64,000 bases of DNA, from contig JACPPH010000004.1 in NCBI GenBank assembly GCA_016191105.1, forward strand, positions 65,230 to 129,229, given 5' to 3'. Source of the stretch: Candidatus Saccharimonadota bacterium (GTDB taxonomy: Bacteria > Patescibacteriota > Saccharimonadia > CAILAD01 > BJGX01). A program made the position numbers and the translations under genes. Shown piece by piece: positions 10,232 through 47,333 of this stretch; position 1 is the stretch's first letter; every line of letters starts with the position of its first letter. The notes under the pieces are model-generated. The model was not told the DNA's origin. It ran no database searches and was given only the letters and a program-made list of their open reading frames with translations.

Positions 10232-10274
10232 ATACTTTGCATTGCGCTCCCTCCGGGCAGGTGCCGGAATTGTG

Positions 10275-10823: not shown

Positions 10824-10956
10824 GTGAGCACCCCTTTCGTGAGTAGTATGGTTGTCGATTGTAAAGGTAGAGGAATGCTCCTCCCCTAAACACTCATTCG
10901 CTGGAGAGCGAATTAAGTACTTGGGGGAGGCCCCATCCACCTTTCGGTGGAAAGGA

Positions 10957-11499: not shown

Positions 11500-11551
11500 G
11501 TCAAAACTCCAGGGATCGGGTTGCTAGCCTATGCCAGCAACGTGTAGCAAG

Positions 11552-18429: not shown

Positions 18430-18455
18430 TCTGTTCTCCAATCCGACATTCTCCC

Positions 18456-18845
18456 GGCCGTTGCGGCGATCAGCAAGCAAGATAACAAAATACACTCTTG
18501 TTGCGAGAATTTGGTGTCTACCAAACCGCACAGCAACAGGAAAGTATTTTGCTGTAGAGCGCTGCTTTATCGTAAGCACAGGCCAAAGACTTTTGCTATC
18601 TTTTGGTCTTTCAAAAGATAGTTGCCCGAAGGGTAAAACCCTTTGAATCTTGCGCTGTCCGCACCGGACTTCTTTGTAGCGGAAAGTTGCCAAAGCTTCT
18701 GGCATGGGCTCAATCAAGTAGTATTCAGATAGATTTAACTTCGGGTTCTGCGGAACTCTCCGCTGGCACGCGGATCAAACAGTCCTCGCTTGCAGCACTT
18801 CGAGCTGCGCAAAGCTACGTCCAGCTGTTCGAATGCCAGACACGG
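18456..18845 (+). ncRNA. Copy 1 of a repeated structured non-coding element (5' domain plus 3' domain)
   Basis: Conserved against 22580-22968 and 37478-37675. Hairpin gctatcttttg-N6-caaaagatag and hairpin aaggg-taaaa-ccctt. Strand uncertain. Confidence 0.45.
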
Positions 18846-18863
18846 GGGGCAGACCAGATAGCG

Positions 18864-18893
18864 CTTGACAAGAGCCTAACTTTATAGTATACT
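18864..18893 (+). promoter_or_regulatory. Sigma70 promoter TTGACA-N17-TATACT upstream of island F
   Basis: Consensus -35 and good -10 with 17-nt spacing. Confidence 0.5.
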
Positions 18894-19042
18894 CTACAGA
18901 TTCAATCTTCGCTGTTCGCTAGTCAGCGAAAGCGAATTGTTGAACGCTCCTTGCTATTGCCTGCATTCTTGCGGGCAATCTGATGAGAAATTTTGAAATC
19001 TAAATAGTCAGCCCACCACAACTTCGCCCTTAGGAGGCAATC

Positions 19043-19456
19043 ATGGGTATCAACTATGCTGTCAGCGATCTGGGTGATGCCGACGGGTTGGCCGGAGAAC
19101 CGATCGATCAGCGCGCACTCGATCTAGCCGAGGCGCTCGAGATGTTCGTCGGCCTCACACATGATGCGGGTGCGAACTTCACGGTTCAGATCACCCTCGT
19201 CGACGAGACCAAGGTGGTCGTCTACTACACCCACTACCTGGGTTTGGTACCGTCGTCCAACCCGGAGAGGCTGTACAACAGCAGCAACTACGGGTTCTTC
19301 TACGCGTTCGAGAAGGATCCCGAGGATCATCTCGACACCTTCGACCAGTTCCTGTTCACCGTGGGGTGCATCGTCAAGGCGGCGCCCTGGATCTGCACCG
19401 AGCGGGTGCTGCGCCGCATCGTCGCCGGCGACGATGCTGGCCAACCAGCAGCATGA
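19043..19456 (+). CDS. Hypothetical acidic protein F1 (island F)
   Basis: AGGAGG Shine-Dalgarno 6 nt upstream. High GC. Confidence 0.4.
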   Translation: MGINYAVSDLGDADGLAGEPIDQRALDLAEALEMFVGLTHDAGANFTVQITLVDETKVVVYYTHYLGLVPSSNPERLYNSSNYGFFYAFEKDPEDHLDTFDQFLFTVGCIVKAAPWICTERVLRRIVAGDDAGQPAA

Positions 19457-19570
19457 TCATCGTTGTGGTGGAATGTGGGGGCCCTTCGGGGCCCCTGCCA
19501 CCACCAGGCTGACTATTTAGATATTCTCGTTAGCTTGCCCGTAAGGAACTGCAAACGATTGGAGATAATC

Positions 19571-19717
19571 ATGGATAAGAATGCGCAGATCATCAAGCTG
19601 GGGGTCTACTCCGAGCTCAACCTGACCTACGCCACCCGCAACGTCTGGTTCGACGACATCCTCATCGGCCATGTGCCGGCGGAGGATCTCGTGGAGCCCG
19701 AAGAGATCAGCAGCTGA
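19571..19717 (+). CDS. 48-aa hypothetical protein F2
   Basis: GGAG Shine-Dalgarno. Trimmed from the 84-aa table ORF to the internal ATG that has an RBS. Confidence 0.3.
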   Translation: MDKNAQIIKLGVYSELNLTYATRNVWFDDILIGHVPAEDLVEPEEISS

Positions 19718-19795
19718 ACCCCCAACGCAGGCAACAACGAAGCAAGGAGCTCCCGAGAACCGTTCTCCGCCAGCCGGCGGAACGCGGTGCTCGGG

Positions 19796-19849
19796 CCAGC
19801 TCCCGAGTTCTGATCCGCTGTCCAACGGAATTCAGGATTCAGGAGCTGG
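19796..19849 (+). repeat. 54-nt imperfect palindrome (ccagctcc...ggagctgg), copy 1, downstream of F2
   Basis: Near-identical copy at 20341-20394 downstream of F3. Confidence 0.6.
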
Positions 19850-19887
19850 AGTGTTACTCTAGCAAAAGTTCCTTGCAGTATCCGTAA

Positions 19888-19908
19888 CTTGTAGCAGTAT
19901 GCTACAAG
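19888..19908. promoter_or_regulatory. Perfect palindrome cttgtagca-gta-tgctacaag (operator-like) overlapping an extended -10 TGCTACAAG upstream of F3
   Basis: Seen directly. 9-bp arms. Confidence 0.45.
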
Positions 19909-19929
19909 TTCAATCGATTGGAGTGACTC

Positions 19930-20295
19930 ATGGAAGTGAAACACGAGAGAGGCGTCGTCGTGGCGTTCTATCCCGGGAGCGATTCCGGTGTTCTCGGCGT
20001 CTACGACGACAGGCTCATGCTGACCGACGAGGAGATCCTGTTCCATCTCGGTGATGGAACGATGATCAAGATCATCGATGACGACGCTGTCTTCGGTGAG
20101 CCGTTCGGCGATGACCAGAGCCCAGATGCGTCGTTGTTGCGGTGCCCCCGGGTTGGAGAGCTCGTCGTCTTCGAGAGGACCGAGCAGGACGGCGAGAACG
20201 TGAAGGCACGGCCATGGACGTACGGCTTCCTCTACGACAACTTCACGGGGGACATGAGGCCACCCTCCGGGGTGAGCAAGCGGCAGCCTGCCTGA
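19930..20295 (+). CDS. Hypothetical acidic protein F3
   Basis: GGAG Shine-Dalgarno. High GC. Asp/Glu-rich. Confidence 0.4.
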   Translation: MEVKHERGVVVAFYPGSDSGVLGVYDDRLMLTDEEILFHLGDGTMIKIIDDDAVFGEPFGDDQSPDASLLRCPRVGELVVFERTEQDGENVKARPWTYGFLYDNFTGDMRPPSGVSKRQPA

Positions 20296-20340
20296 AGCCC
20301 AACCCCAACAAGCAAGGAGCAACGGGCCGACTAGTTCGGC

Positions 20341-20394
20341 CCAGCTCCCGAGTTCTGATCCGCTATCCAGCGGAATTCAGGATTCAGGAGCTGG
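20341..20394 (+). repeat. 54-nt imperfect palindrome, copy 2
   Basis: See 19796-19849. Confidence 0.6.
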
Positions 20395-20494
20395 AACGCT
20401 TTAGTTCGAGCAAATCGCTCTTTGTTTTTGCAATACCTGGCCACGAGGTTCGTGGCAAGCAACCGACGGAAACAGACTACGAAAGGAAACCGTC

Positions 20495-21106
20495 ATGACA
20501 ACACACCTCTCCGAAGAGGCCCGCAAGATGATCGAGGACTTCACCACCGCCACCGTGAGCGCGTGGATGGATGCTGGCATCATCAAGACCAACTCCTGGG
20601 GCGTATGGCTCGAGGCCGACGACCCCAACGGCGACTTCGAGAACGCCGTCGATCACCGGTTCGGCTTCGACCACCCCGAGGGCAAGCACGACGCCGAGTG
20701 GTACATCGCCAACGCCAAGGGCAAGTGCGAAGCCTGCTTCGCCACCGGCAAGGACAGCCACGAGGCTGTTCGAACCTGGCAAGGCATGCTCAACGGCGTG
20801 GACGGCATCTTCCCTTGGGGCGGCGCGATCATCGACACCGACTATGGAATCTGCGTCGGCGTCAGCGGCTTCCGCGAGGACGAAGATCTGATGGTGGCCC
20901 GTGCCATCCGCAACTTCATCGTCATGCTGTTGGATCGCAAGGGGCAGAACTACATCGACGAGACCCGCGCACGCGGCAAGGACGATGCCCCCGATCCCAG
21001 CGACAGGTTCACCAGGGCCTCGAAGCCCGACGACTACGAGGACTTCGGCGAGGGTCCGATCGGCCGGGAGTTTTCGAAGACCACCCATCCGAACCTGACC
21101 ACCTAG
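20495..21106 (+). CDS. Hypothetical acidic protein F4 (203 aa)
   Basis: AAAGGAAA Shine-Dalgarno. High GC. Followed by the perfect hairpin gagcatccgcc-tca-ggcggatgctc (21129-21153). Confidence 0.45.
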   Translation: MTTHLSEEARKMIEDFTTATVSAWMDAGIIKTNSWGVWLEADDPNGDFENAVDHRFGFDHPEGKHDAEWYIANAKGKCEACFATGKDSHEAVRTWQGMLNGVDGIFPWGGAIIDTDYGICVGVSGFREDEDLMVARAIRNFIVMLLDRKGQNYIDETRARGKDDAPDPSDRFTRASKPDDYEDFGEGPIGREFSKTTHPNLTT

Positions 21107-21236
21107 TCGACAAGCAATGCAAAGAGCCGAGCATCCGCCTCAGGCGGATGCTCACAGCTCTCAAGCTAATCAGTTATGATTGGTTTAAGAGCTGAATCCA
21201 TAAGTCATTCTGAACTTGTTGCAGAATCTCAAAATT

Positions 21237-21530
21237 ATGAGCAAACAATATTACGTATACCTGCTGACTAATAAGACAAATCAAGTTTTGTATACTGGTG
21301 TAACTAGTGATTTAGTCAGACGAGTTAATGAACACAAAAATCATCTCGTTGAGGGGTACTCTGATAAATACAATGTAGATAAACTTGTATACTTTGAAGT
21401 GCTTGACGATCCCGAAAATGCAATTAAAAGGGAGAAGCAAATAAAAAATTGGCATAGAGACTGGAAGCTAAGCCAAATAAAGAAAAGTAATCCCAATATG
21501 AAGGACTTGTATGAGAAGATCCTGAAATAA
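21237..21530 (+). CDS. GIY-YIG nuclease family protein
   Basis: YVYLL...LYTGVT...RRVNEHK motifs. 8 nt upstream of truB. Confidence 0.8.
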   Translation: MSKQYYVYLLTNKTNQVLYTGVTSDLVRRVNEHKNHLVEGYSDKYNVDKLVYFEVLDDPENAIKREKQIKNWHRDWKLSQIKKSNPNMKDLYEKILK

Positions 21531-21537
21531 ATTCAGG

Positions 21538-22185
21538 ATGACAAGAACTATGCAAATAAAAGAAGGCATTCTACTCATAAACAAACCGCGCGGGCGGAGT
21601 AGTTTTAGTATGGTTGCCCAAGTGCGTCGAATTAGTGGTGTCAAACGGGTTGGCCATGCCGGCACCCTCGACCCGGAGGCCGAAGGCCTGCTGATAGTAC
21701 TAGTGGGTAAGGAGTACACCAAAAAGTCAGATAGCTTTCTTAAACTCGATAAAACTTATGAATTCACTATCAGGTTGGGCCAATCTAGCACAACAGGAGA
21801 TAAGGAAGGCGAGAAAACAGCTATCTCGAGCGATAAACCAACCGAAAAGGCCATTTTGAACGTTTTACAGGGCCTGCAGGGCGAGCTTAAGCAGGTTCCG
21901 CCTATTTATAGCGCTATCAAAGTAAACGGCCAGCGGGCCTATAAATTGGCCGCCAAGGGCCAAAAACCGGATTTAGAAGCTCGTGAGATAACCATTTACA
22001 GCTTAGAATTGCTCGATTACACCTATCCACAGCTAAAACTACGTGCCGAGGTTAGTAGTGGTACATATATACGGGTATTAGGTGAAACTATTGGGATGCA
22101 GCTTGGAACCGGGGCCTATTGCACCGAGATTATTCGTACCAAAATTGGCAAATATGACCTGAAAAATGCTATTATCTTAGATTAA
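21538..22185 (+). CDS. truB: tRNA pseudouridine(55) synthase
   Basis: Catalytic GHAGTLDPEAEGLL motif. Size fits TruB. Confidence 0.9.
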   Translation: MTRTMQIKEGILLINKPRGRSSFSMVAQVRRISGVKRVGHAGTLDPEAEGLLIVLVGKEYTKKSDSFLKLDKTYEFTIRLGQSSTTGDKEGEKTAISSDKPTEKAILNVLQGLQGELKQVPPIYSAIKVNGQRAYKLAAKGQKPDLEAREITIYSLELLDYTYPQLKLRAEVSSGTYIRVLGETIGMQLGTGAYCTEIIRTKIGKYDLKNAIILD

Positions 22186-22199
22186 TTTTTCCATCTACC

Positions 22200-22557
22200 T
22201 CCTAGTCATTCCCGCGTAGGCGGGAATCTAAACAATTTCTTGGTACAAGTCATTCCATTCGGGATTAGAAGATTCTATTTTGCGAATCTTCCAAGATCGA
22301 TTCCACTTCTTCATCTGGTTCTCTCTGACAATTGCCTCGTTGATATCGTCATATTGAGCGAACCAAACGAGCTTAGTAACGTTGTACTTTTTGGTGAACC
22401 CAGCTACTAAGTGATTTTTATGCTCGTAAACTCGTTTAGCCAGATTACTGGTAACACCAATATATAGAGTTCCATTGCGATCACTTGCCAATATATAAAC
22501 ATACCCAACTTTCATGAGCAGATATTATACTGGATTCCCGCCTATAAGCGGGAATGA
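22200..22557. mobile_element. Hairpin-flanked mini-element carrying a GIY-YIG gene
   Basis: Near-identical palindromic hairpins (stem ATTCCCGC/GCGGGAAT) at 22203-22224 and 22531-22555 bracket the gene. Confidence 0.4.
22228..22515 (-). CDS. GIY-YIG nuclease family protein (paralog of 21237-21530, ~55% identical)
   Basis: GYVYIL...LYIGVT...KRVYEHK. Confidence 0.8.
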   Translation of the reverse strand: MKVGYVYILASDRNGTLYIGVTSNLAKRVYEHKNHLVAGFTKKYNVTKLVWFAQYDDINEAIVRENQMKKWNRSWKIRKIESSNPEWNDLYQEIV

Positions 22558-22579
22558 CGGGTAGAGGGTGTTGTTCAAC

Positions 22580-22968
22580 GGCCGTTGCTACGATCAGCAA
22601 GCGAAGCCGCCAAGCAACGCTCCTGATTGCGAGAATTCGCTGGCTAGCGAACCGCACAGCAACAGGAAGTTGCGACTGGCTAAGTACTGCTAGATCGTAA
22701 GCACAGGCCAAACGGTTTTGCTATCTTTTGCCAAGACAAAAGATAGTTGCCCGAAGGGTAAAAACCCTTCAAACCTATGGCTTTAAGCAGCCGGCACTTC
22801 TTTGAGACCCAAAGAAGCAAAGCCTCCGACATGGGCTCACACCTGGTGGCTGCTTGCTCGCTCGCAAGCTGAAGCTGCGGAACTCGTCCGCCAGCTGGCG
22901 ACTCAGACAGTCCTCGCTTGCAGCGTTTCGTGCTTAGCATGCTGTGTCCAGCTGTTCGAATGTCGGCA
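22580..22968 (+). ncRNA. Copy 2 of the repeated structured non-coding element
   Basis: Aligns with copies 1 and 3. Carries the ttcgc/gcgaa hairpin where the other copies have tttgg/ccaaa (a compensatory change). Confidence 0.45.
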
Positions 22969-28596: not shown

Positions 28597-29276
28597 TCTA
28601 AGGGTCGTACCCTTAGATTAAACCTCGCCTGGGTCAATGGCCAGTTCGTGCTTAATCTTATCGAGCTCATCTCGTGTCGGCTTGTATTCATCCACGAACT
28701 CGAGATAGTCTTGGTTCTCGAAAAGGTTTAAGATCCGATGGGGAAGTAACCAATCTGAGCTACATAGACCGGTATAATATGACAAGCTTGACCACTGCCA
28801 GTGCTGGTAGTCGTTGGGATTAAGATGAATATAGCGCGATATGTGGAGCAAATAACTGTCCGAGCTAATTCTAGAAGCCCGGTAACGTTGTTGAAAAACT
28901 GGCCCAATCCGTTTATAGCGATCGTTGAAATACATACCATAGGCCACACCAACGCTTTTCATTAATAACTTCATGGCATCAACGGTCTGTTGATACAGAA
29001 GGAGATGAAAATGATTAGGCATCAAGCAAAATGCCAAAAGCTCTACGGTGCCAAAGTATGTGGGGTATTGTACGCCAGCCGAATTTTTTGCTGGGGTACT
29101 GCTCAAATAGCGCTTTAGAAGCCCCACAAACACAGCATAATCTCTATCATCATTGAAAATGACTTGACGATTCACCCCACGATTATAGACGTGGTAAAAA
29201 CTCTGAGGAGCGTATTGTTTGTAAATATTCCTACCAGGCATGACGCTCATTCTAAGGGTACGACCCTTAGAATACA
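28591..29276 (-). mobile_element. IS200/IS605-family insertion sequence (tnpA only) with subterminal hairpins at both ends
   Basis: Right end has the palindrome gtttaatctaagggtcgtacccttagattaaac directly after the rnj stop. Left end has the hairpin attctaagggtacgacccttagaat at 29249-29273. Confidence 0.7.
28618..29250 (-). CDS. tnpA: IS200-like Y1 (HUH) transposase TnpA / REP-associated tyrosine transposase-like
   Basis: HFHLLL (HuH) motif, conserved Y in YKRIGPVFQQRY, and N-terminus MPGRNIYKQYAPQSFYHVYNRG. The 310-aa table ORF is trimmed to the start after the left-end hairpin. Confidence 0.75.
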   Translation of the reverse strand: MSVMPGRNIYKQYAPQSFYHVYNRGVNRQVIFNDDRDYAVFVGLLKRYLSSTPAKNSAGVQYPTYFGTVELLAFCLMPNHFHLLLYQQTVDAMKLLMKSVGVAYGMYFNDRYKRIGPVFQQRYRASRISSDSYLLHISRYIHLNPNDYQHWQWSSLSYYTGLCSSDWLLPHRILNLFENQDYLEFVDEYKPTRDELDKIKHELAIDPGEV

Positions 29277-29476
29277 AGCATGATAGTTTTGGTTGAGAAT
29301 AATAGGTGTTCTCTAGCCAATAATTAGCCGGCGCGGCTTGACAAGCCATATTAGTTATGGTAAGTTCCAATTGACAGGAAGGCCAAAATCTAGCCTTCGT
29401 GCCGTAGCTTGCAGGTTGATAGAAGGGAGTTAGCACTGACGAGATAGCGACAAAAGCGAAACGAAAGGACGATCCC

Positions 29477-37315: not shown

Positions 37316-37477
37316 CTACGCTTGAGTACGAATCTAAAAATCACGGCCGCCAGTACAACCCACAAAGCAATTACAACCACTTCACACTCCTCATTGCTAG
37401 GTATTATATTTGTTAAGCTATAATACTTCAATAGAAAAAACTTTTGTTTTTACAATCTCTGACACTCGATCTTCTTC

Positions 37478-37675
37478 GGCCGTTGCCAACGATCGGCAAG
37501 CGAAGCCATTAAGCAACGCTCTTGTTTGCGAGAATTTGGTTGTTACCAAACCGCGCTAGCCTCCAAGAAGTTTCGACTGGCTGAGCACTGCTAGACTGTA
37601 AGCATAGGCCAGGCGGTTTTGCTATCTTTTGCCAAGACAAAAGATAGTCGCCCGAAAGGGTGAAAGAATTTCAGC
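37478..37675 (+). ncRNA. Copy 3 (5' domain only) of the repeated structured non-coding element
   Basis: Aligns with copies 1 and 2 up to the gctatcttttg...caaaagatag hairpin. Confidence 0.4.
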
Positions 37676-38225
37676 TTTTGGCCGGCAACACGCTTGGGCT
37701 AGTTTTTTGCAGTTTTATGGTGCTGTCTTTAACTACAATGGTTTTGTTATCATCTTTTACATCGACAACCATATTACGATCAATAATATGAGAGGCGTAA
37801 AAAAACTGCCAAATAGAACGTGATTTTAAGTAAAGCTTAGTTGCTGTGAAATCATTAGTGCTTAAGCTAAAGTCGTTAACCCGGCCTAGTTTTTTGCTGC
37901 TTTGGGTAACTACATTGGCACCACACAACAAAAAAGGCTGCTTTATATATGGCTTGAGTCGCACTAAATCCTCGTCTTCGGCTAGATCATTTGCAGATTC
38001 TATAATTAGTTTATTGTTATCGACCAGCTTTATGTCGTGCGGCAATAGGTAGCGTGGCCTAAATTTGGTCTGCAAATGAACTTGTAACATAACGATTTTA
38101 AAGTCATCGGGGTTAACAATGAGTTTTTGCACCCGACCCAGAATACCACCGTCCTGCACGCTAAAAACAGGCAGTTGAATAATATGACTAGCTAAGTGTG
38201 GCATGCTTACAGTATACCTGGCCAA
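37671..38225 (-). CDS. PRC-barrel domain protein (two tandem PRC barrels)
   Basis: Two repeats with PRC-like beta-barrel sequence features (VQDGGILGRVQKLIVNPDD; GANVVTQSSKKLGRVNDFSLS). Confidence 0.55.
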   Translation of the reverse strand: MARYTVSMPHLASHIIQLPVFSVQDGGILGRVQKLIVNPDDFKIVMLQVHLQTKFRPRYLLPHDIKLVDNNKLIIESANDLAEDEDLVRLKPYIKQPFLLCGANVVTQSSKKLGRVNDFSLSTNDFTATKLYLKSRSIWQFFYASHIIDRNMVVDVKDDNKTIVVKDSTIKLQKTSPSVLPAKS

Positions 38226-38369
38226 CTATTTCTTTTCGAACTCTTGCGCTATCTCAAGGTAACAGCAACGCAAATGTGAAACTTCTTTACCGTGTTATTT
38301 GAATCTGGTGGGCTAAACAAAATCGCACCAAACTCGGTTAACTCCTTGCCGCACTTGTCGCAAACCGGC

Positions 38370-38792
38370 TTAATTGCCATCGTTATTTACCATATCTAAG
38401 TTTAGATTTTCATCTAAGCTAATGCCACTGAGCTTATTTATACCAACGATCGCTATAGTCGGCTGCAGCAGCTTTATCAAGGCTAATATGTTGACCTCGT
38501 GCGAAACTATTAAAGCTTGACCGTTAGCCGGCAGTTGACCGAGCAGCTTTTTGGCCAAATCTAACAAACTTTTGGCGCCGGCTGGGTCGGACGACAGCAT
38601 TAACACCGGCTCGATGGCTGGTTTTTGGCCGGTCAAAAGCCCGGCCGTAGTTTGTGTGCGTTTGGCCGGAGAGGCTACCACAATATCAAAATGGGGGAGC
38701 TTTTGCGCCAACTCCTTACAAGCACCAACACCTTGCGGTGTGAGCTCATCGCCCTCACGATCGGCATGCCGCAGTATTATTACTCGTTTCAT
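38370..38792 (-). CDS. Histidine phosphatase (SixA/PGAM family)
   Basis: N-terminal RHADRE motif, ~140 aa. Confidence 0.65.
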   Translation of the reverse strand: MKRVIILRHADREGDELTPQGVGACKELAQKLPHFDIVVASPAKRTQTTAGLLTGQKPAIEPVLMLSSDPAGAKSLLDLAKKLLGQLPANGQALIVSHEVNILALIKLLQPTIAIVGINKLSGISLDENLNLDMVNNDGN

Positions 38793-39358
38793 AGCGCTTT
38801 TATAATGACATTAGCCATCTTGCTGGTGGGCCATTCTCCGTTGACAACAATGTCTGCCAGTTTGCTTTGTGGCTGAACATAGTTTCTGTGTCCGGGGATT
38901 AGCCTTTTATTGATGTACTCAGGCAGATCCCACCGGCTAACACCGTCTGATCTGTCAAGCCTTCGTTGAACAATCTGCTCTTCTGGCAAATCAATAAACA
39001 CTTTTTTGTCAAAGAGCTTTACAGCGGCCGGATCGTAGAAGATTAAAAAGCCTTCTATAAAAGTGAATTTATTTGGATCAAGCTGTTTACTGGTTACCCC
39101 AGAGGCAGTGCTCTCCCTAGATTTGGTCCGCAGATGTATAGTCTTTCCTTGCCTTAGACTTTTTAGGTCGGTTATAAATTCATCGTAACGATAGAGAGAG
39201 GGATTTTCCCAATCTTCAACAACTTCTGGTAAGTTTTCTTCACCAACGAAGTAATCATCAAACGACAGGCCGGAGAATTCATCGCCGAGTCGCTTTTGAA
39301 TTTCTTCAATTAGTGTAGTTTTGCCACTACAGCTGCCACCAGCAATTCCGATAATCAT
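38789..39358 (-). CDS. Uridine kinase-like P-loop nucleoside kinase
   Basis: N-terminal IIGIAGGSCSGKTTL Walker A. Udk-like length. Confidence 0.65.
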   Translation of the reverse strand: MIIGIAGGSCSGKTTLIEEIQKRLGDEFSGLSFDDYFVGEENLPEVVEDWENPSLYRYDEFITDLKSLRQGKTIHLRTKSRESTASGVTSKQLDPNKFTFIEGFLIFYDPAAVKLFDKKVFIDLPEEQIVQRRLDRSDGVSRWDLPEYINKRLIPGHRNYVQPQSKLADIVVNGEWPTSKMANVIIKAL

Positions 39359-39918
39359 TTGCCTAGTTTCTGTTTTAGCACTCTTAGCAACTCTGGAAAT
39401 TCTTTTTTATCCTTGTCATAACCAAAGTGTCCTTGATCACTAAACTCGTGATATTCAGAGCCGAGTCTGTCTTTTATGAATCTAGCTTCTTCGATCGGTA
39501 TCCAAGGGTCGTCGGTAGAGGCGAATACTACAGCCCACTTTTGATTATCTTTAATTGCTTTCCAGCCCCAAGGCTGATCAAAGTAGCCACTCTTCTTCTC
39601 GGTCTCATCGCCCAGATCGGTGTAGTAGCCACCAACTAATATTGATCCTAACAGCTTGCTGTTTTCGGCATACTTCAGAGCCGCTATTGCTCCAGTTGAA
39701 TGACCAACTAGTATGGTATTTTCATCTGCACTAAGCTTATCTTTTAAATATGGAATCCAGTATTTAGCTCTGCCCAGTTCAGAATCAGGCATATCTGGGG
39801 CTAAGCATTTAACATTTAGCTTTTCTAGCTCGCCTTTAAGCCATGGCAGCCAATTGTCTGAGCCTTTGCCGCCACCATTGCCGTGCAGCAGAATCACTTT
39901 TACGTCTTTCATGTTCAC
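39355..39918 (-). CDS. Alpha/beta hydrolase (YdeN/RBBP9-like serine hydrolase)
   Basis: GHSTG nucleophile elbow. ~190 aa. Confidence 0.65.
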   Translation of the reverse strand: MNMKDVKVILLHGNGGGKGSDNWLPWLKGELEKLNVKCLAPDMPDSELGRAKYWIPYLKDKLSADENTILVGHSTGAIAALKYAENSKLLGSILVGGYYTDLGDETEKKSGYFDQPWGWKAIKDNQKWAVVFASTDDPWIPIEEARFIKDRLGSEYHEFSDQGHFGYDKDKKEFPELLRVLKQKLGK

Positions 39919-40045
39919 AATTATACCAAACCTGGTGATACAATAAAATTATGGAAATAAGATTGGCCGACAGCTCAGACACAAAACAACTAGGTGAAAT
40001 GCGTTGGGATTTTCAGATCGAAGAGCCAACTGAAACTGTTTCTAG

Positions 40046-40128
40046 TGGTAAAAACCCTTAGGGGCGTATTGTTTGTAAATGTTCCTACCAGGCATGAAGC
40101 CCATTCTAAGGGTACGACCCTTAGAATA
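40046..40128 (-). mobile_element. Solo left-end remnant of the IS200/IS605-like element (includes the first ~17 codons of tnpA and the LE hairpin)
   Basis: ~85% identical to 29181-29276. The reading frame is broken after MGFMPGRNIYKQYAPKGFYH*. Confidence 0.6.
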
Positions 40129-40457
40129 CAAATTGGTTCGGCGCAATTGTAGCGCTTGGATTGGTGTACATACCACCGTACCAAACTACAGGCTACTCAC
40201 CTTGCTGTTGGGGCATAGGGTGATTTAGTATATGACATAGGTGTCTTGTCTCCCTGTTTATTAGTCATTTACAAGTCTGATAGACACCCGTTTTTGTTGC
40301 TAAGCTAGTGAACCCATTACAGTAGTGTTGACCCGGACCTGATTACCAAGTATAATTACATGGTTTTAAAAGCTAATTGACCTTTTTACTAAAGCATAAA
40401 TACAAACAGACTTTAGTGAAGCTCGCAACAAGCGAGGGATCCAAAGAAAGGAAATAA

Positions 40458-40850
40458 ATGAGACAATACGAAGTAGCAATTTTGCTACACCCCGATCTAG
40501 AGATCGACATAGAGTCGGCCACCTCTAAGATCGAAAAGATCCTGACTGCCAATGGTGGCAAGATCGTAAAAAAAGACAACTGGGGCAAGCGTAAGCTAGC
40601 CTATAAGATCAAAAAACAGGAGTGGGGAATTTATGTGTTCTACACTGTAGAACTACCGACCGAGGCTCCACAAAAGATCACCAACACCCTGCGAATTACC
40701 GAAGAGGTAATGCGCTATCTTGTGGTAAGTTTAGAGCGAATTCGCTACGTAAATAAGCCAACCGAGGGTGCTAAAAAAGAAGCTCCCAAGGATAAAACCG
40801 AAAAGGCTGCGGCTGAAGAAGGCGAAAAAGAAGAGAAAGGGGAAGAGTAA
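40458..40850 (+). CDS. rpsF: 30S ribosomal protein S6 (acidic C-terminal tail)
   Basis: MRQYEVAILLHPDL is a typical S6 N-terminus. A stem-loop (gctcgc-aacaa-gcgagg) sits in the leader. Confidence 0.9.
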   Translation: MRQYEVAILLHPDLEIDIESATSKIEKILTANGGKIVKKDNWGKRKLAYKIKKQEWGIYVFYTVELPTEAPQKITNTLRITEEVMRYLVVSLERIRYVNKPTEGAKKEAPKDKTEKAAAEEGEKEEKGEE

Positions 40851-41329
40851 TGGCCAAAGATTTTAACCAAGCAATTGTAATGGGCAATTTAACCCGTGAC
40901 CCGGAACTGCGCACCACACCGAGCGGACAATCTGTCGCTAGTTTTGCTGTAGCCACCAACCGTAGTTGGCAAGACCCCAGCGGTGAACGTAAAGATGCTG
41001 TGGAGTATCACGACATTGTAGCCTGGGGTAAATTAGGTGAACTGGCTAGCAGCTACCTACAAAAGGGCCGCAAAGTGCTGGTAGTAGGCCGCTTGCAAAC
41101 CCGCAGCTGGGAAGGCAACGACGGTGTTAAGCGCCAAAAAACTGAGATTGTTGCAACTGATATCAACTTTGTGGATCGCATGAACGCTGGTGGCGACGCC
41201 GGTAGCGATGCTGGTTTTAACCAAGACCCAGATGCTCAAGCACCAGCAAAACCAGCTACCAAAAAAGACGGCGTAAAAATCGAAGACATGGGTGACGGCG
41301 ATATTAACCTAGACGACATTCCGTTTTAA
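40850..41329 (+). CDS. ssb: Single-stranded DNA-binding protein
   Basis: OB-fold N-terminus; C-terminal acidic tail DDIPF. Confidence 0.9.
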   Translation: MAKDFNQAIVMGNLTRDPELRTTPSGQSVASFAVATNRSWQDPSGERKDAVEYHDIVAWGKLGELASSYLQKGRKVLVVGRLQTRSWEGNDGVKRQKTEIVATDINFVDRMNAGGDAGSDAGFNQDPDAQAPAKPATKKDGVKIEDMGDGDINLDDIPF

Positions 41330-41335
41330 GGACTT

Positions 41336-41557
41336 ATGATGGCAGAATTCTACAAAAGCAAGCAAAATAAGTTTTACGCCGAAAAGCTCGAATACATCGA
41401 CTACAAAGATGTTAAGACTTTGCAGCGCTATCTAAATAGTGTTGGCAAAATCGAAGGTCGCAAGCGCACTGGTGCTAGCATGAAGCACCAACGACAGTTG
41501 GCAAAAGCACTCAAGCGGGCAAGACATATGGCTCTTTTACCGTTCGTGGTACGCTAG
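41336..41557 (+). CDS. rpsR: 30S ribosomal protein S18
   Basis: Typical S18 sequence in the rpsF-ssb-rpsR arrangement. Confidence 0.9.
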
Positions 41558-41636
41558 CATGCATACTGTTCGAACAGAGTGAGAACTATAGTTCTCGGCA
41601 AGCCTCGAACAATAAAGCTTACGGAGACAATTTACT

Positions 41637-42197
41637 ATGTATGGCCCAACTGACCTACGAAAAGAAACCTTAATTGAACTCGATGGCGCGCCCTACCGGG
41701 TGGTTGAATATGCTCAAAAACAGATGGGCCGCGGTGGTTCGACCGTTAACACTAAGATCAAAAATCTCATTACTGGCCAGGTTTTGGATCGCACATTCAA
41801 GAATGATGAACGCGTTAAACCAGCAGAAATCGATCACAAAACCGTACAGTATTTGTACCGCAGCGGTGATAAATTGAACTTTATGGATATGAGCAGTTAC
41901 GAAACGCTTGAGATTGAACAACAAATTGACTCTAATATCCCCAAGTACTTAAATGAAGGCTCAGAAATAGAAGCCCTGATTTTCAACGGCCAAACCATTG
42001 GTTTTGATTGGCCCAAGAACGTAGTGCTCAAAGTTGTATCAGCTCCAGGTGGTGATAAAGGCAATAGCGCCAGCGCCACCACCAAAGAGGTGGAGTTAGA
42101 AACAGGGCTAAAAGTACAGGCTCCACAGTTTATAAGGGTTGGTGACACGGTAAAAGTCGACACCCGCACTGGTCAATACCTAGAGCGCGCTAAATAG
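41637..42197 (+). CDS. efp: Elongation factor P
   Basis: 186 aa; KPGKG-like loop region (GRGGSTVNTKIKNLITGQ) and three OB domains. Confidence 0.9.
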   Translation: MYGPTDLRKETLIELDGAPYRVVEYAQKQMGRGGSTVNTKIKNLITGQVLDRTFKNDERVKPAEIDHKTVQYLYRSGDKLNFMDMSSYETLEIEQQIDSNIPKYLNEGSEIEALIFNGQTIGFDWPKNVVLKVVSAPGGDKGNSASATTKEVELETGLKVQAPQFIRVGDTVKVDTRTGQYLERAK

Positions 42198-42199
42198 TC

Positions 42200-42928
42200 T
42201 TATACGGCCGGCAAAAAACCAGCCCTACTCCAGTTCCACAATACGGGGTGCATCTGCACAGGCGTAACGTCACTGTCTTTCAATAGCTCCCTCCATGCCG
42301 CAATTACTTCCTCTTGATTTGCACCCTCTGGCACCAAGCCAAGCTCAATACTCGACTGGATTATGTGTGTATCTGGAATAATCGAAATCTCATACGGGTT
42401 TAACCACTTAACGTCTGTGTATTGCGAAAGTATGTATGGCCAATAGTTTGAGAGTTTTGGGCCAGACAGGTATGGAAATGATTTCTTCTTAGTAACTTGA
42501 AGTATTTCTAGAAGTTTCAAAATATCATTTTGTGCTTGCCCAATTATCATTCTTGGGTCATCATCGAACTCGCCGTGAAGAGTTGCGGCAATCGTGGTCC
42601 AAATGAGAGTGTGCTTGTTAGGCTGGAGCGCAAGTCGATGCTTGCCTAGGTCAGCCTGAATTTTTTTGTAAGTAGTTTTTGCTAACTTCTCGGGGAAATA
42701 TAGATAATTAGTGGTTGGATCATCCCAGGTAGCGAGGGCCGACTTCCACATCGCAGGACTATTGCGCTGAAAGTTAATGCAGGCAGGAAGGGTAAAGTAT
42801 AGGTAGTTTTCTCGACTCCCACGACCCAACCTGGGATTAACCTCATGCTGGGCCAGAGTAGGGATGTCTCCTTCGGTATAATGCTGTAGAAGCCTCTTAA
42901 CTCGTTTTAGTTGCTCAGCAGCATCCAT
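42200..42928 (-). CDS. Hypothetical protein (242 aa)
   Basis: ORF only. No confident motif. Confidence 0.4.
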   Translation of the reverse strand: MDAAEQLKRVKRLLQHYTEGDIPTLAQHEVNPRLGRGSRENYLYFTLPACINFQRNSPAMWKSALATWDDPTTNYLYFPEKLAKTTYKKIQADLGKHRLALQPNKHTLIWTTIAATLHGEFDDDPRMIIGQAQNDILKLLEILQVTKKKSFPYLSGPKLSNYWPYILSQYTDVKWLNPYEISIIPDTHIIQSSIELGLVPEGANQEEVIAAWRELLKDSDVTPVQMHPVLWNWSRAGFLPAV

Positions 42929-44014
42929 TTAACTATGCCTAATTACTACAATATCACCATCTTGCATGGTGTAGTCCTTGCCTTCTAAACGGACTTTGCC
43001 AGATTCCTTGGCGCCGGCCCAACCACGGCCAGCCACAAAATCTTCATAGGTTACAACCTCGGCTTTAATAAAGTTTTTCTCGAAATCACCATGAATTACT
43101 CCAGCCGCCTGTGGCGCCGTGTAGCCAGCTCGCATAACCCAACCACGGGTTTCTTTGGGCCCAGTGGTAAAGAATGTTTCGAAGCCTAGAGTTTGGTAGC
43201 CGAGACGAATTAGGCTTTCTAGGCCCGACTCGGTTTGACCTAAACCGGCGAGCAGTTCTTTGGCTTCAATTTCTGATAAATCTTGCAGTTCAGCTTCAAC
43301 CTTGGCACACAAAAACACTGCAGGGCAGGGGCTAACAATTGCTTCCAGCTCTTTTTTGAGTTGCTCGTTACCAAGTTGTGTTTCATCTAAATTAAAGACG
43401 ATTATGAATGGCTTGGCGGTTAAAAGCTGCATGTCGTGTAAATCATGCATTTCTTCAGCAGACAAGAATGATCCGGCGAGCTTAGCTTCATCTAACCCGG
43501 CCTTAGTTTTTTCGAGTAAGGCCTTGAGTGGTGCCAGCTTTGGGTCGGCTTTGAGCTCGGACTTTATTCGCTCTAGGCGACTTTCGACAGTAGTCAAATC
43601 TGCCAAAATTAACTCAGCATTTATAGTTTCGATGTCAGCCTTAGGGTCAGTCTTATTTTCGACATGAGTTATTAGAGGGTCTTCAAAAGCTCTCACAACC
43701 TGCACAATGGCGTTGCATTCTCGTATATGGCTTAAGAATTTGTTGCCCAGGCCTTCACCCCGGCTGGCGCCACTAACAATGCCAGCGATGTCTACAAACG
43801 TACAGCTAGCAGGAATAGTTTGGGCTGAGCTTGAAATCTCGGCTAGCTTTTGCAAACGCGTATCTGGCACATTAACCACGCCTACGTTCGGCTCAATAGT
43901 GGCAAAAGGGTAGTTCGCGGCCAATACTTGGTTTTTGGTGAGGGCATTAAAGAGAGTGGATTTACCCACATTGGGCAGGCCCACAATGCCAATCGAAAGA
44001 CTCATAAGTTGCAA
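42929..44014 (-). CDS. ychF: Ribosome-binding ATPase YchF
   Basis: G1 GLPNVGKST, TGS-like C-terminus, 361 aa. Confidence 0.9.
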   Translation of the reverse strand: MQLMSLSIGIVGLPNVGKSTLFNALTKNQVLAANYPFATIEPNVGVVNVPDTRLQKLAEISSSAQTIPASCTFVDIAGIVSGASRGEGLGNKFLSHIRECNAIVQVVRAFEDPLITHVENKTDPKADIETINAELILADLTTVESRLERIKSELKADPKLAPLKALLEKTKAGLDEAKLAGSFLSAEEMHDLHDMQLLTAKPFIIVFNLDETQLGNEQLKKELEAIVSPCPAVFLCAKVEAELQDLSEIEAKELLAGLGQTESGLESLIRLGYQTLGFETFFTTGPKETRGWVMRAGYTAPQAAGVIHGDFEKNFIKAEVVTYEDFVAGRGWAGAKESGKVRLEGKDYTMQDGDIVVIRHS

Positions 44015-44190
44015 TTATAACAAATTAACAGGCATAATTCCAGATACAGCAGTCGACAAATAGCATACAAATATGTTATTATCTATTTCTCTTTGTTCCT
44101 ACTAGATCGGGGGATGCGTATGAAGAAGACGCTATTGTTAGTGGGTGCTTCAGTTGTGATCATGACTGGTGGTGTGGCAGCCGCCAGTTC
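43985..44190 (+). repeat. Copy A of a ~210-bp duplicated module (ychF 5' end, promoter, RBS, signal-peptide codons)
   Basis: Nearly identical to 45955-46170. Confidence 0.8.
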
Positions 44191-44374
44191 AAGTCTCGAT
44201 GCAAATACTGATATCGCAAAAGTCTTTCTCTTTAAAATTCTACCAAAAAAGATAGTGGATGATGACGATCGATGGCCAGAGTTGAAAGAAGCAGTGGATG
44301 CTTTAAGTCCATTAATAATTGGTTTGTATGATGTTTATATGAATGAGTTTGACAAATATCATTTGGCAACTTAA
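44120..44374 (+). CDS. Small secreted protein (signal peptide MKKTLLLVGASVVIMTGGVAAASS) with an AT-rich payload
   Basis: Start placed at the MKKT ATG after GGGGGATGCGT. Shares the first 27 residues with the 46101-46712 protein. Confidence 0.4.
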   Translation: MKKTLLLVGASVVIMTGGVAAASSSLDANTDIAKVFLFKILPKKIVDDDDRWPELKEAVDALSPLIIGLYDVYMNEFDKYHLAT

Positions 44375-44645
44375 AGAAAGTCTAATAATGAATCCTCTAG
44401 ATAACTTAGAAGAAAAACGACATGATCAGTTTAATATACAAACAAATCAGCTACTTGGTCAGATTGAAGAGTACCTTGTTAATGAAGGTGTAGAGCAGTA
44501 TGAACCTCGCTATACTAGTATCCGCAAAAAACCAAATGCAAAGATGCTAGGAATATGCCTAACGAGCAAGTGTTGGAATTAATAAACCAGTTGCGAGAAT
44601 TGGCTTGCTTTTTATACGATCGTTACCAAGCTAGTAAGCTAAAAA

Positions 44646-45692
44646 CTAGGTAGTCTCGGTTCGATCTACCATAAACTTTACTGCTTCGTTCATATTGATC
44701 GGAACTATCTCGATATCGGGATGCTTGGCGTGAAAAACTCTAAATATCTCATCAGAAAAAGCTTGTCCAACGGTTGGGACATGCTTAAAGTCTAAGATTA
44801 TACGCCTAAACTTATTTAGACCAGCTAGCAGACGCCTTGCTTGCGAACGAGAAACATATATTGTCCGCATAGTGTAAAGCTTAATTTTGATTTCTGTTTG
44901 GTCGAAAGCTGGCTCCTCAGGGTCTACTTGGTAATTAGAGAATACACTACTTAAGTGTAACTTTGTTTTTACATTTATATTAAACATAACTTCAGTTCCT
45001 CGGAGATCTGGCTTAGATTCCTCCACAAAAACATCCTGAATTCTATTATCTATTCTTAATTTGTAACCAAAACTTTCCAGAGTAAATAAATCTCCAATCT
45101 TTGATGTAAAGAATATGCCTTCTCCAGAATGAGCCTTGGGAGCAGTAGTTGTTTTTCCTTTCAATAAGTCTTGTATCGCCTCAATCTCAGACTTTAAGTT
45201 TCTTTTCTTCATTACATTGCGAAAAACACCTATACCAAAGTCACGTACAACAAACGTAAGAATATCTTTTTCCTGGCTAATTTCAATCTCAATATACTTA
45301 GTTTTCGAGTGCTCAATAGCATTATTTAGCATTTCTGAAAATGCATAAGCAAAAATGCTCTGTACATTTTCTAGGAGATTATTTAAGAATGGTTTTTCTT
45401 TTTTAATCCCATCTAGTACTTCGTATTCTTCCAGCTCTTTATTCACCAGTCTTTTTTTAATTCGTTTGCCCAATGCATCGGCATACTGAGGAAGCGCATA
45501 GACCGACCACCTGCCACTTCCTTCTCTTACTAGAGTACCGTCTTTAACCATGCTATTCACGACTGTACTTACATAAGATCTCGCATAGGGTTTTTGTGTA
45601 TGTTCGCGCAACGCTTTAATGACATCAACTGTCTTAAATTGCTTCTTCTCCCTGGCTATTTTTAAAATGGTTTCTTTAATCATAATGCTCAT
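44646..45692 (-). CDS. wHTH, GHKL-type ATPase (HATPase_c), STAS-like three-domain protein
   Basis: N-box EMLNNAIEHS, G1 VRDFGIGV, G2-like HSGEGIFF, C-terminal STAS/DUF4325-like region. Located in an AT-rich island. Confidence 0.65.
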   Translation of the reverse strand: MSIMIKETILKIAREKKQFKTVDVIKALREHTQKPYARSYVSTVVNSMVKDGTLVREGSGRWSVYALPQYADALGKRIKKRLVNKELEEYEVLDGIKKEKPFLNNLLENVQSIFAYAFSEMLNNAIEHSKTKYIEIEISQEKDILTFVVRDFGIGVFRNVMKKRNLKSEIEAIQDLLKGKTTTAPKAHSGEGIFFTSKIGDLFTLESFGYKLRIDNRIQDVFVEESKPDLRGTEVMFNINVKTKLHLSSVFSNYQVDPEEPAFDQTEIKIKLYTMRTIYVSRSQARRLLAGLNKFRRIILDFKHVPTVGQAFSDEIFRVFHAKHPDIEIVPINMNEAVKFMVDRTETT

Positions 45693-45719
45693 CTTAATTT
45701 ATATGTTAGGTACTATATC

Positions 45720-45835
45720 ACTCTATGTCAGGCTGTATGTCAAGTACTTTATAATTCTATGTTATATTATCTGTTAAACACTAGTTTTATGGCTATGTTA
45801 GTAAGTAAAAGTGCTATGTAAGATTCTATGTCAAG
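45720..45835. repeat. Array of six CTATGT(C/T)A direct repeats upstream of the GHKL-ATPase gene
   Basis: Copies at 45723, 45734 (GTATGT), 45757, 45792, 45813 and 45826. Confidence 0.6.
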
Positions 45836-45954
45836 TTTTAGTTAGATAAATGACTATATCAATTAAAGGAGTATTTTTTAATAAATTCGTTGGAATATCC
45901 ACGCTTACCTTGATCGGGGAGTGGCATCTTGAATGTCAGCTTGAATGGTATGGT

Positions 45955-46170
45955 TACAGCCTGACTATGCCAATCGAAAGACTCATAAGTTGCAATTATA
46001 ACAAATTAACAGGCATAATTCCAGATACAGCAGTTGACAGATAGCATACAAATATGTTATTATCTATTTCTCTTTGTTCCTACTAGATCGGGGGATGCGT
46101 ATGAAGAAGACGCTATTGTTAGTGGGTGCTGCAGCTGTGATCATGACTGGTGGTGTGGCAGCCGCCAGTT
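45955..46170 (+). repeat. Copy B of the duplicated promoter/signal-peptide module
   Basis: See 43985-44190. Confidence 0.8.
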
Positions 46171-46712
46171 CGCAGGTTCCATACCCGCAGCCGCCAGACT
46201 TCCCAACGCCGCTCGGCTGCTACGACACCACCCAAGGGCCCGATGGGCCTCAAGTGGGGTCTACCTGGGTGGCAACCATCACCACATCGCCAGCTCAACC
46301 GCCTTTCGATACCCACATCACCGTCGTGGCGGGCCAGGGGTACTGGCTGATGCAGGTCAGGGGCGGTTGGTTCAACCCGGATCAGACGGCTGGTGGCTTC
46401 GTCTGGAACAACCCGGATGGCTTCAACAACACCACGTACGAAACCAACGGCTATGGTGCTGGTTTCGGGGTGGTGGCTGTGGCTTGTCCATGGCCGTGCC
46501 TGGGGGCGCCACCATTGCCCACCACCAGCACGTTGCCAGAGCCGTACTGCGCGGCTCCGCCAACCACGCACCTGAGCTTGCCGTCGGCATCGGTCAGTCT
46601 GGCCACTACCAGCACGACCACCACCACAGTGAGCTTAGCCAGCACCGAATCATCCACCACAGCTCAGCCGGCCACGCAGGCCGTGGTGGCAACGCCACGC
46701 TTTACCGGCTGA
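46101..46712 (+). CDS. Chimeric secreted protein: low-GC signal peptide fused at ~46170 to a high-GC Pro/Thr/Gly-rich payload
   Basis: The composition switch coincides exactly with the end of the duplicated module. A perfect terminator hairpin lies at 46725-46770. Confidence 0.5.
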   Translation: MKKTLLLVGAAAVIMTGGVAAASSQVPYPQPPDFPTPLGCYDTTQGPDGPQVGSTWVATITTSPAQPPFDTHITVVAGQGYWLMQVRGGWFNPDQTAGGFVWNNPDGFNNTTYETNGYGAGFGVVAVACPWPCLGAPPLPTTSTLPEPYCAAPPTTHLSLPSASVSLATTSTTTTTVSLASTESSTTAQPATQAVVATPRFTG

Positions 46713-46820
46713 AGCACCATATTGCTCCACGGGAAGGGGGTTTGCCCCTTCCCGTGGAGCCGTTTTGTTTATTGACTTGTTATCTTCAGCCGATCGCCTA
46801 TAATAAAAAGCGTAACTATT

Positions 46821-47333
46821 ATGGGTGAAATTTCTAAATCCCACAGCGAGGTAGAGAAGAAAAAATCTACAAACAAAAAATTTTTGATTGTAGTAATCGT
46901 TTTAATTTTGCTTGTATTGCTGACTGCACTTGGCGGCTGGTATTGGTATACGCAAAATAAAAACCAAGCTTCTGGGCAAGGCTGTTCTAGCACAGCCAGT
47001 AAAAGTCTATTGCAGCAAGCTATTAGTGATATCGGCAATGGCCAAGGCTTAAAGCCCCTAGCAGACAAGATTACCCAGCTCAAAAATTTCCAGAATGATC
47101 CGAACTGCGTGTACATACTTGTGGCCTACTATAGCCAGAATAACGATGCCGCCAATACCCAGAAATACGCTCAAATACTGCATAGTTTTCCGTCAAATAA
47201 ACAGCCCTCAGATTTATTAGTAAAAAGCACCAACGATAAATTACAGGCATTAAAATCTAATATCGACTTTTTGATAAATTTTAACACTCAGTCTGTCAAG
47301 AATTTTGTTGGCACAGGGACTCCGCAGAAATGA
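46821..47333 (+). CDS. Single-pass membrane protein (170 aa)
   Basis: One TM helix (FLIVVIVLILLVLLTALGGWYWY). Stop overlaps the start of the downstream gene. Confidence 0.5.
   Translation: MGEISKSHSEVEKKKSTNKKFLIVVIVLILLVLLTALGGWYWYTQNKNQASGQGCSSTASKSLLQQAISDIGNGQGLKPLADKITQLKNFQNDPNCVYILVAYYSQNNDAANTQKYAQILHSFPSNKQPSDLLVKSTNDKLQALKSNIDFLINFNTQSVKNFVGTGTPQK

Follow-up and report, generated by a model that had tools for sequence, protein, structure and literature searches.

An AT-rich island bracketed by a duplicated divergent promoter region, between ychF and a GC-rich secreted-protein gene of a Saccharibacteria genome

Some integrative elements bring with them a near-identical copy of one end of the gene that they target; examples are e14 and phage 21, both at icd of E. 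coli, and the islands that target transfer RNA (tRNA) or transfer-messenger RNA (tmRNA) genes. To our knowledge, the mobile elements of Saccharibacteria, members of the Candidate Phyla Radiation (CPR), are poorly described. Here, we analyze a stretch of 64,000 nucleotides (nt) from a Candidatus Saccharimonadota bacterium (contig JACPPH010000004.1, positions 65,230 to 129,229; hereafter the window, with positions counted from its first letter), in which an AT-rich island lies between the GTPase gene ychF and a divergently oriented gene for a secreted protein, termed gene B, with a copy of the same 205-bp sequence at either end. An earlier reading of this DNA, the original prediction, had taken the GC step at the duplication boundary for a fresh fusion; relatives instead point to the GC-rich gene as the resident and the AT-rich DNA as the newcomer. 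We see an island insertion of an ordinary kind here, not the recent construction of a chimeric surface protein, and consider it likely that an AT-rich mobile segment inserted between ychF and the native gene B, bracketed by the 205-bp duplication. This makes it a clean, datable gene gain in a CPR genome.

As with e14, phage 21 and the tRNA islands, a long near-identical direct repeat duplicates the end of a gene, the interrupted genes are intact with an orphan fragment left at the far side, the composition of the insert is foreign and a junction recurs in a second genome. Unlike in those systems, a divergent promoter and two 5' ends are duplicated instead of a 3' end, the 1.8-kb insert lacks an integrase and the host belongs to the Saccharibacteria. 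The order of homology, insert and homology with a few strain-level mismatches also resembles Campbell-type integration (suicide plasmids, lambda-dgal-type excision products), as does the presence of one illegitimate junction (44190/44191) that truncates genes of the element; in contrast to that case, no circular form was observed here, and we infer the source of the captured 205 bp. Insertion sequences and transposons likewise have a direct repeat at both ends of the insert, but here there is no transposase, the ends are not inverted and 205 bp is far too long. The island has the flanking direct repeats, deviant composition and empty site in relatives of an integrative element, without an integrase or recombinase; it has neither the transposase nor the terminal inverted repeats of a transposon, and gene B does not have the features of a recent fusion by horizontal gene transfer.

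The 205-bp duplication and the inserted island

Base-by-base comparison delimits a clean direct repeat of 205 nt, with copy A at 43986-44190 and copy B at 45967-46171, identical at 201/205 positions and with similarity that drops sharply at either end. A repeat search paired 43976-44190 with 45957-46171 at 96%, and self-blastn gave 97.6% over 208 nt (E=2e-97), which is far above chance expectation. The four mismatches (copy A/copy B) are at 44054 (C/T), 44059 (A/G), 44150 (T/G) and 44154 (T/C). The repeat consists of 20 nt from the start of ychF (minus strand), a 114-nt divergent intergenic region and 71 nt of a plus-strand open reading frame (ORF). In copy A it is joined to the rest of ychF and provides the first 24 codons of the secreted-protein gene, and in copy B it begins with an orphan 20-nt ychF 5' fragment and runs into the 5' end of gene B. 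The original prediction of a promoter, ribosome-binding site (RBS) and signal-peptide module present twice is borne out, with coordinates good to within ~12 nt; its start of copy B at 45955 lay ~12 nt too far left, and it had counted 18 nt of ychF where there are 20.

The coding part common to both copies is 23 codons plus 2 nt, with codon 24 specifying Ser in each, and contains two substitutions, S11A and V12A; both ORFs begin MKKTLLLVGA(S/A)(V/A)VIMTGGVAAASS. A sigma-70-like promoter is found in both copies. In copy B, the promoter-like site that would serve gene B (46034..46063, plus strand) reads TTGACA-18-TATTAT, matches 11/12 consensus positions and has an extended -10 TG, and that of copy A (44053..44082, plus strand) reads TCGACA-18-TATTAT, at 10/12, with the -35 weakened by the mismatch at 44054. 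In copy A the promoter, RBS and start codon are all intact.

Past the repeat, copy A leads into DNA of 35.2% GC and copy B into 541 nt at 64.1% GC, so the prediction was right about the sequence on both sides: an AT-rich stretch follows copy A and separates the copies, and copy B continues into a high-GC region of 179 residues (~180 predicted), whose GC content at third codon positions (GC3) is 0.73; the window as a whole averages 48.1% GC. The island occupies 44191..45966 (1776 bp), and all 540-bp windows below 36% GC in the 64 kb lie in it (starts 44201-45641). It is missing from the corresponding site of two related loci, on contigs L001 and L003, where the gene B ortholog starts 123-124 nt from a divergent ychF and there is no duplication. 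The gene order of the window, rpsF-ssb-rpsR-efp-(242 amino acids (aa))-ychF (minus strand), copy A, island, copy B with gene B, a 170-aa transmembrane (TM) protein, an 801-aa protein and pilM onward, has its counterpart there in rpsF-ssb-rpsR-efp-x-ychF followed by gene B, a TM protein of ~320 aa, a large protein of ~900 aa, pilMNO and secretion ATPases. On a third contig (L009), a 35-39% identical gene B homolog is in the equivalent slot, again with neither island nor duplication. By composition and by these empty sites, the island, not gene B, appears to be the foreign newcomer.

We then considered whether this structure could come from the assembly. Logan contigs come from a k=31 graph, and three independent ones, from run SRR12113392, agree with the window at 100% identity over 37619-44015, 44161-45996 and 46142 onward, each ending exactly 30 nt inside a repeat end; the size of the island contig, 1836 bp, had been predicted before retrieval. 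Breaks 30 nt into a repeat are what a k=31 graph yields if the reads contain the repeat together with its junctions. The junctions (ychF to repeat, repeat to island, island to repeat and repeat to gene B) are thus present in the raw data, with three of the four reproduced at 100% identity by these contigs, and the four differing sites rule out a trivial base-identical assembly duplicate.

The best surviving alternative is mis-threading, in which a single-copy chromosome and a separate circular episome of 1981 bp (the island with its own 205 bp) were strung together by the assembler. A circle plus an empty site would have the same four junctions, between which k=31 contigs that break at the repeat ends cannot decide, and the island does contain iteron-like repeats beside a gene for a DNA-binding protein. 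However, the four single-nucleotide differences are at most 96 nt apart, so that assemblies with k of ~100 or more, or 150-nt reads, can phase the copies, and the 133.7-kb contig deposited at NCBI carries the island in integrated form. Similar arrays precede chromosomal homologs of the gene on contigs of 16 kb to ~1 Mb, which argues for operators and not an origin; a related island on a second contig (L084) is contiguous with a chromosomal-type flank; and the island has no nucleotide match in phage and plasmid collections. For these reasons we think integration very probable and a 1981-bp circle beside an unoccupied chromosome unlikely, though the least so of the rival explanations.

The second occurrence of the island, on the 2.5-kb contig L084 (run ERR1898439, a different sample), matches window positions 44608-46007 at 88.7% nt identity, and its encoded DUF4325 protein is 96% identical. 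In the orientation of the window it has a small ORF, the DUF4325 gene, an array of TATGT motifs and then a junction that is the same to the base: island sequence ending ...GGTTGCAACCTGTCT is joined to ATACCAATAGACAGACTCAT, the reverse complement of ATGAGTCTGTCTATTGGTAT (MSLSIGI, the start of ychF). Side by side, the right junctions of the two genomes read ...GGTAT|AGACAGG and ...GGCAT|AGTCAGG. From ~40 nt past the junction onward, L084 departs much further from the window in the intergenic region than it does in the island; the gene that follows there codes for a small TM protein of another kind, and gene B is absent. In the matching left part of the island, the two sequences are unrelated. 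The comparison covers one junction of one additional genome. An island that is better conserved than its flanks and has the same position relative to ychF in two genomes points to mobility with a defined joining point or a travelling ychF fragment.

The base-identical right junction also bears on a long target-site duplication made in situ, in which cuts staggered by 205 bp would have been filled in and the copies diverged later by 2%. Such an event would place a direct repeat exactly at the borders of the insert, as found, and would spare the donor any prior 205-bp copy. Known target-site duplications, however, span a few to tens of bp, there is neither a transposase nor a terminal inverted repeat, and a recurring junction argues for a defined recombination site or a travelling ychF fragment; we rate this explanation below mis-threading.

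The history that we favor would start from ychF and an intrinsically GC-rich gene B back to back, sharing the 114-nt divergent promoter region, a state that persists in the relatives. Into this region would have come a 1.8-kb AT-rich segment with a self-contained gene of winged helix-turn-helix (wHTH), GHKL and STAS-like parts and its operator array. The incoming DNA may have been a circle with its own copy of the 205 bp. Recombination with the chromosomal sequence would have followed, through one homologous (Campbell-type) crossover or through a site-specific recombinase acting in trans near the start of ychF; both the circle and the enzyme are postulated. To acquire that copy, the element could earlier have integrated at the ychF start of a sister strain and then excised imprecisely, taking along the intergenic region and the signal-peptide codons of gene B and losing its own left part, before it re-entered this genome via the 205-bp homology or the trans-acting recombinase. 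The ~2% mismatch between the copies would then be strain divergence, the right junction (island | ychF nt 20), kept in L084, the original attachment point, and the left junction (codon 24 | island), which is unique and truncates the island content relative to L084, an illegitimate join.

The 205-bp duplication leaves both resident genes with an intact 5' end and promoter, ychF at copy A and gene B at copy B. As far as motifs tell, gene B retains the better promoter together with its RBS and signal peptide, and ychF its start and TATAAT box. With the promoter and the two gene starts present twice, an insertion into a divergent promoter can do no harm.

Several observations weigh against this history. 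No integrase, recombinase or transposase was found with Pfam, NCBIfam, PHROGs or PADLOC among the ORFs of the island or the extra ORFs of L084 and of a further contig, L089, and the additional 800 bp that the island has in L084 likewise contain no recombinase. Without one, the element would be a remnant or depend on mobilisation in trans. The island ends have no terminal inverted repeats or short target duplications, and an identity block of 205 bp is long for an attachment (att) site. For the left end of the island (44191-44555) no relative turned up anywhere searched, so that the original element cannot be reconstructed, and the integrated and episomal states yield one identical junction set. 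On L089, a 68% identical DUF4325 homolog lies between ychF and the pair of TM and large-protein genes in the opposite orientation and inside a larger insert, with no duplication of ychF; this placement suggests a hot spot more than strict site specificity, and flags ychF as a possible recurrent insertion site. Finally, the predicted signal-peptidase site is no more than 1-2 codons away from the left junction, and the fusion frame has no stop for 60 codons beyond that junction, a somewhat tidier arrangement than a random by-product should show.

This last point concerns an ORF of 84 aa that starts in copy A (44120..44374, plus strand) and is deposited at NCBI as hypothetical protein HYX70_02410. 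The spare promoter and signal peptide of copy A read in frame into the island, which gives an orphan fusion of 24 signal-peptide residues of gene B and 60 island residues, with a hydropathy profile equal to that of gene B. The original prediction had named the protein of copy B as the chimera; the true chimera is this copy-A ORF, with the recombinant junction at 44190/44191. Nor was any evidence found for the repeated cassette shuffling once proposed for the locus, where one insertion is seen.

An in-frame fusion with its junction at a predicted cleavage site leaves a small probability that the product is used and is not debris. In that case the element would be built so that its own small gene, the 60-aa payload, comes to lie downstream of the promoter and signal peptide of the host gene, which would receive a spare copy in return, and the fusion would be a real secreted product. 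The intact expression signals of copy A fit this, and only 2.3% of plus-strand island positions are followed by at least 60 open codons. However, the payload has no homolog apart from the deposited protein itself, the -35 of copy A is the weakened one, L084 is unrelated in the corresponding part of the island and there is only one instance, and we give functional capture a lower probability again than a target-site duplication.

Gene B as a resident GC-rich gene

Gene B (46101..46712, plus strand, 62.6% GC) is native and intact. Its product of 203 aa has a predicted signal peptide, followed by a predicted beta-sandwich domain with Cys residues (residues ~30-133), then a tail rich in Pro, Thr and Ser and, at the C-terminus, a conserved ATPxFTG. 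The intrinsic terminator behind it (46724..46770, plus strand), also called earlier, is real, with a 16-bp stem of 12 GC pairs and a loop of 5 at 46724-46760, and then a T-tail. Both ORFs that start in the repeat share a putative Sec-type signal peptide of the layout MKK + TLLLVGA(A/S)(A/V)VIMTGGVAAA + SS, with Kyte-Doolittle 11-residue means of up to 2.6, and the orthologs are alike. An AlphaFold model has a beta-sandwich core at residues ~30-133 (predicted local distance difference test score 70-81) and a disordered Pro/Thr tail, and has no significant neighbor in PDB.

A search of 5.8 billion sequence clusters returned only five homologs, at 54-69% identity (P0001-P0005), and a profile search of 1.84 billion representative proteins added two distant members (P0127 and P0128) and nothing else credible. 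A giant protein from the profile search (P0129) proved a false lead (hhalign probability 0.6%, no Pfam match). All family members that can be placed on contigs are in a Saccharibacteria-type context, no homolog outside this Saccharibacteria family was found among the 5.8 billion clusters and 1.84 billion representatives, and a pattern scan of GTDB species genomes gave pattern matches only and no relatives. The cluster, profile and GTDB pattern searches show no actinobacterial or other high-GC donor, and so the actinobacterial source once suggested for the payload gives way to a small Saccharibacteria family.

Gene B is colinear with P0001-P0005 across the junction of signal peptide and mature protein (GGVAAASS|QVPYPQPP versus CGVAG(A)xS|QVPYPxPP), and the alignment continues through four conserved Cys to a conserved C-terminal AVVATPxFTG. 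Orthologs that are colinear and syntenic at ychF make copy B an ordinary intact ortholog. They are also GC-rich, with 61.7% (L001), 61.5% (L003) and 58.1% (L009) in loci of ~46% GC, and a GC3 of 0.67, 0.71 and 0.58, respectively, versus 0.40-0.46 in neighbor genes; in the window, the GC3 of gene B is 0.71 and that of the genome 0.45-0.55. The first 60 nt, which encode the signal peptide, are at ~50-52% GC in every ortholog. Since the GC step at the signal-peptide boundary is found in all orthologs, it is a family property and not a breakpoint, and the earlier view of copy B as a native export signal on foreign high-GC cargo does not hold for genes that are colinear, syntenic and 58-62% GC throughout. 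The high GC persists in lineages whose ychF is only 65-74% identical, with 65-67% against that of the window, and is best read as a family trait with no recent foreign origin. An ancient fusion in the ancestor of the clade is conceivable and would be unrelated to the present duplication.

The least likely explanation is therefore the one first proposed, that a native low-GC promoter and signal-peptide module was joined to an acquired high-GC domain, for example from Actinobacteria, on which Saccharibacteria live, at a locus that shuffles payloads: the sharp GC step near 46171 (~50% to 63-70%), the GC3 of gene B above that of the genome and the other high-GC patches of the window speak for it, but the orthologs are colinear, have the same step and occupy the same slot without any duplication, and neither the protein searches nor the GTDB pattern scan gave a homolog from outside the Saccharibacteria family.

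The Pro/Gly/Ala/Thr-rich composition of gene B explains its GC at codon positions 1 and 2, but not its GC3. We offer tentatively, as one joint and rather doubtful idea, that some force has held the GC3 of gene B 20-25 points above the genome over a long divergence and that a recombinase-less DUF4325 mini-element of Saccharibacteria homes to the start of ychF via captured promoter and gene 5' ends, inserts harmlessly and creates secreted fusions. Also of interest is the orphan family of secreted proteins itself, encoded at the head of a type IV pilus cluster and GC-rich even where the genome leans towards AT.

We also observed that gene B and all seven relatives (P0001-P0005, P0127 and P0128) terminate in A-(V/I)-x-A-T-P-x-F-T-G, which follows the disordered Pro/Thr tail with no transmembrane segment beyond. 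This motif may serve as a so far unrecognised signal for sorting or attachment, in proteins encoded where the type IV pilus cluster begins. Between L001 and L003, ychF is 95% and gene B 62% identical, which raised the question of hypervariability or allele swapping; this was rejected, given that nucleotide identity is ~78% throughout, gene B included, and the divergence is better ascribed to weak constraint.

The DUF4325 gene and the rest of the island

The main cargo of the island is a gene of 348 codons (44646..45692, minus strand) whose product combines an N-terminal winged helix, a GHKL/HATPase_c domain and a C-terminal STAS-like DUF4325. Pfam matches are PF14213 (2.5e-13, 50.0 bits against a cut-off of 23), PF13581 (1e-06, 29.2 bits against 27.4) and PF02518 (8.5e-06, 26.6 bits against 26.4). 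The protein family has more than 7000 matches, mostly in Patescibacteria at 57-75% identity and the best at 96%, so the island protein resembles thousands of PF14213-GHKL-winged-helix proteins in that group (57-96%), all of the same architecture. Homologs occur in unrelated neighborhoods (L085, L086-88, L090-92 and L093-94) and, at 36-38% identity, on viral contigs. PADLOC gave just a weak AbiEi-type winged-helix match (8e-05), and the literature mentions the family by name in passing, with no tested function found for a wHTH-GHKL-DUF4325 member.

Upstream of the gene lies an array of ~7 (C)TATGT(T/C)A motifs (45700..45850), a predicted operator that includes a 34-nt tandem unit; 5/17 of the CTATGT hexamers of the window fall within 274 bp at the array. 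Arrays of CTATGTYA / TRACATAG (AACATAG/CTATGTT) likewise precede the homologs on L084 (490-640), L085 (5854-5991) and L089 (7860-7990). The array is probably an autoregulatory operator bound by the winged helix of the DUF4325 protein itself, and not a replication origin. A very widespread and uncharacterised wHTH-GHKL-STAS gene with a conserved operator array thus deserves attention beyond this locus.

Two small plus-strand ORFs complete the island. One of 64 aa (44388..44582) is an orphan with no family match. The other is a 32-aa remnant (MPNEQVLELINQLRELACFLYDRYQASKLKTR; 44555..44653), convergent with the DUF4325 gene; its counterpart in L084 is a small ORF of 53 aa, of which the final 32 codons are left here.

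Further searches of the locus gave little. Rfam gave no match, either for the full window or for 43900-46900 with permissive E-values, no tRNA or tmRNA was found as a possible att site, and exact-pattern scans of JGI metagenome contigs for the repeat and for the right end of the island had no matches. Decayed ychF-like sequence in the island past the 20 nt (around a P-loop-like PDQGKRG) was rejected, as the alignment was no better than shuffles (p=0.87). Short direct repeats beside the DUF4325 gene of L090 were discarded as a cassette border because they belong to an intergenic repeat family of five copies; a pair beside the L085 gene, 79% identical, may resemble them and was not taken as a border either. 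The L090 family is a 38-nt element (...GGCTCCGGGTCGTGGTCGATGTTAGAACTA) that occurs in five successive intergenic regions of this Patescibacteria contig (720-757, 1935-1972, 2484-2521, 3219-3256 and 4700-4737) and resembles repetitive extragenic palindromic (REP) elements.

ychF and other features of the window

The ychF gene (42929..44005, minus strand) is intact, with Pfam matches to YchF-GTPase_C (1.6e-33) and MMR_HSR1 (7.5e-23), and its first 20 nt (43986-44005) lie within copy A. Orthologs begin MSLSIGIVGLPNVGKST, and the best matches are ychF of Candidatus Saccharibacteria metagenome-assembled genomes at 60-71% aa identity. The matches ranking next are all from Actinomycetota at 57-60% (Agromyces, Microbacterium, Jiangella and Bifidobacterium), which may be of phylogenetic interest given the epibiont-host relationship. 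A TATAAT lies just 8 nt upstream of the ychF ATG (44005-44022, minus strand; reverse complement of GCAATTATA), and a ~40-nt stretch at the ychF start is kept across diverged Saccharibacteria (L001, L003 and L084). Together, the conserved stretch and the near TATAAT suggest a leaderless or near-leaderless ychF messenger RNA.

GC-rich genes are not unique to the gene B locus, given that other high-GC patches (60-65%) lie at 1384-2263 and 10100-11500 of the window in a genome of 48% GC. Their genes include a 228-aa ORF without a family, a Pro/Cys-rich lipoprotein-like ORF (10275-10940, minus strand; MKRLPILIPFILAAASC...) and an S-adenosylmethionine (SAM) methyltransferase (10957-11499, minus strand) with a GC3 of 0.78.

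An intergenic repeat is present in three copies (18455-18835, 22579-22962 and 37477-37665) that are 73-84% identical, with a common core of ~190 nt and 390 nt common to the first two. It contains a hairpin with an invariant 11-bp stem, GCTATCTTTTG-N6-CAAAAGATAG, followed by GCCCGAAGGG; RNAalifold predicts 59 pairs, 5 of them with compensatory changes, from three sequences only, and there is no Rfam match. The repeat is possibly an undescribed structured RNA or the end of a mobile element. Its first two copies bracket 3.7 kb (18835-22579) with a high-GC patch at 19043-21106 that includes an ORF of 63% GC and a GC3 of 0.88 (20495-21106), a 60-nt internal repeat (19791-19850 and 20336-20395, 95%) and a GIY-YIG ORF (21216-21530), and this segment looks like a second island flanked by direct repeats. 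Elsewhere in the window, an 87-nt repeat occurs at 29191-29277 and 40045-40131 with 93% identity.

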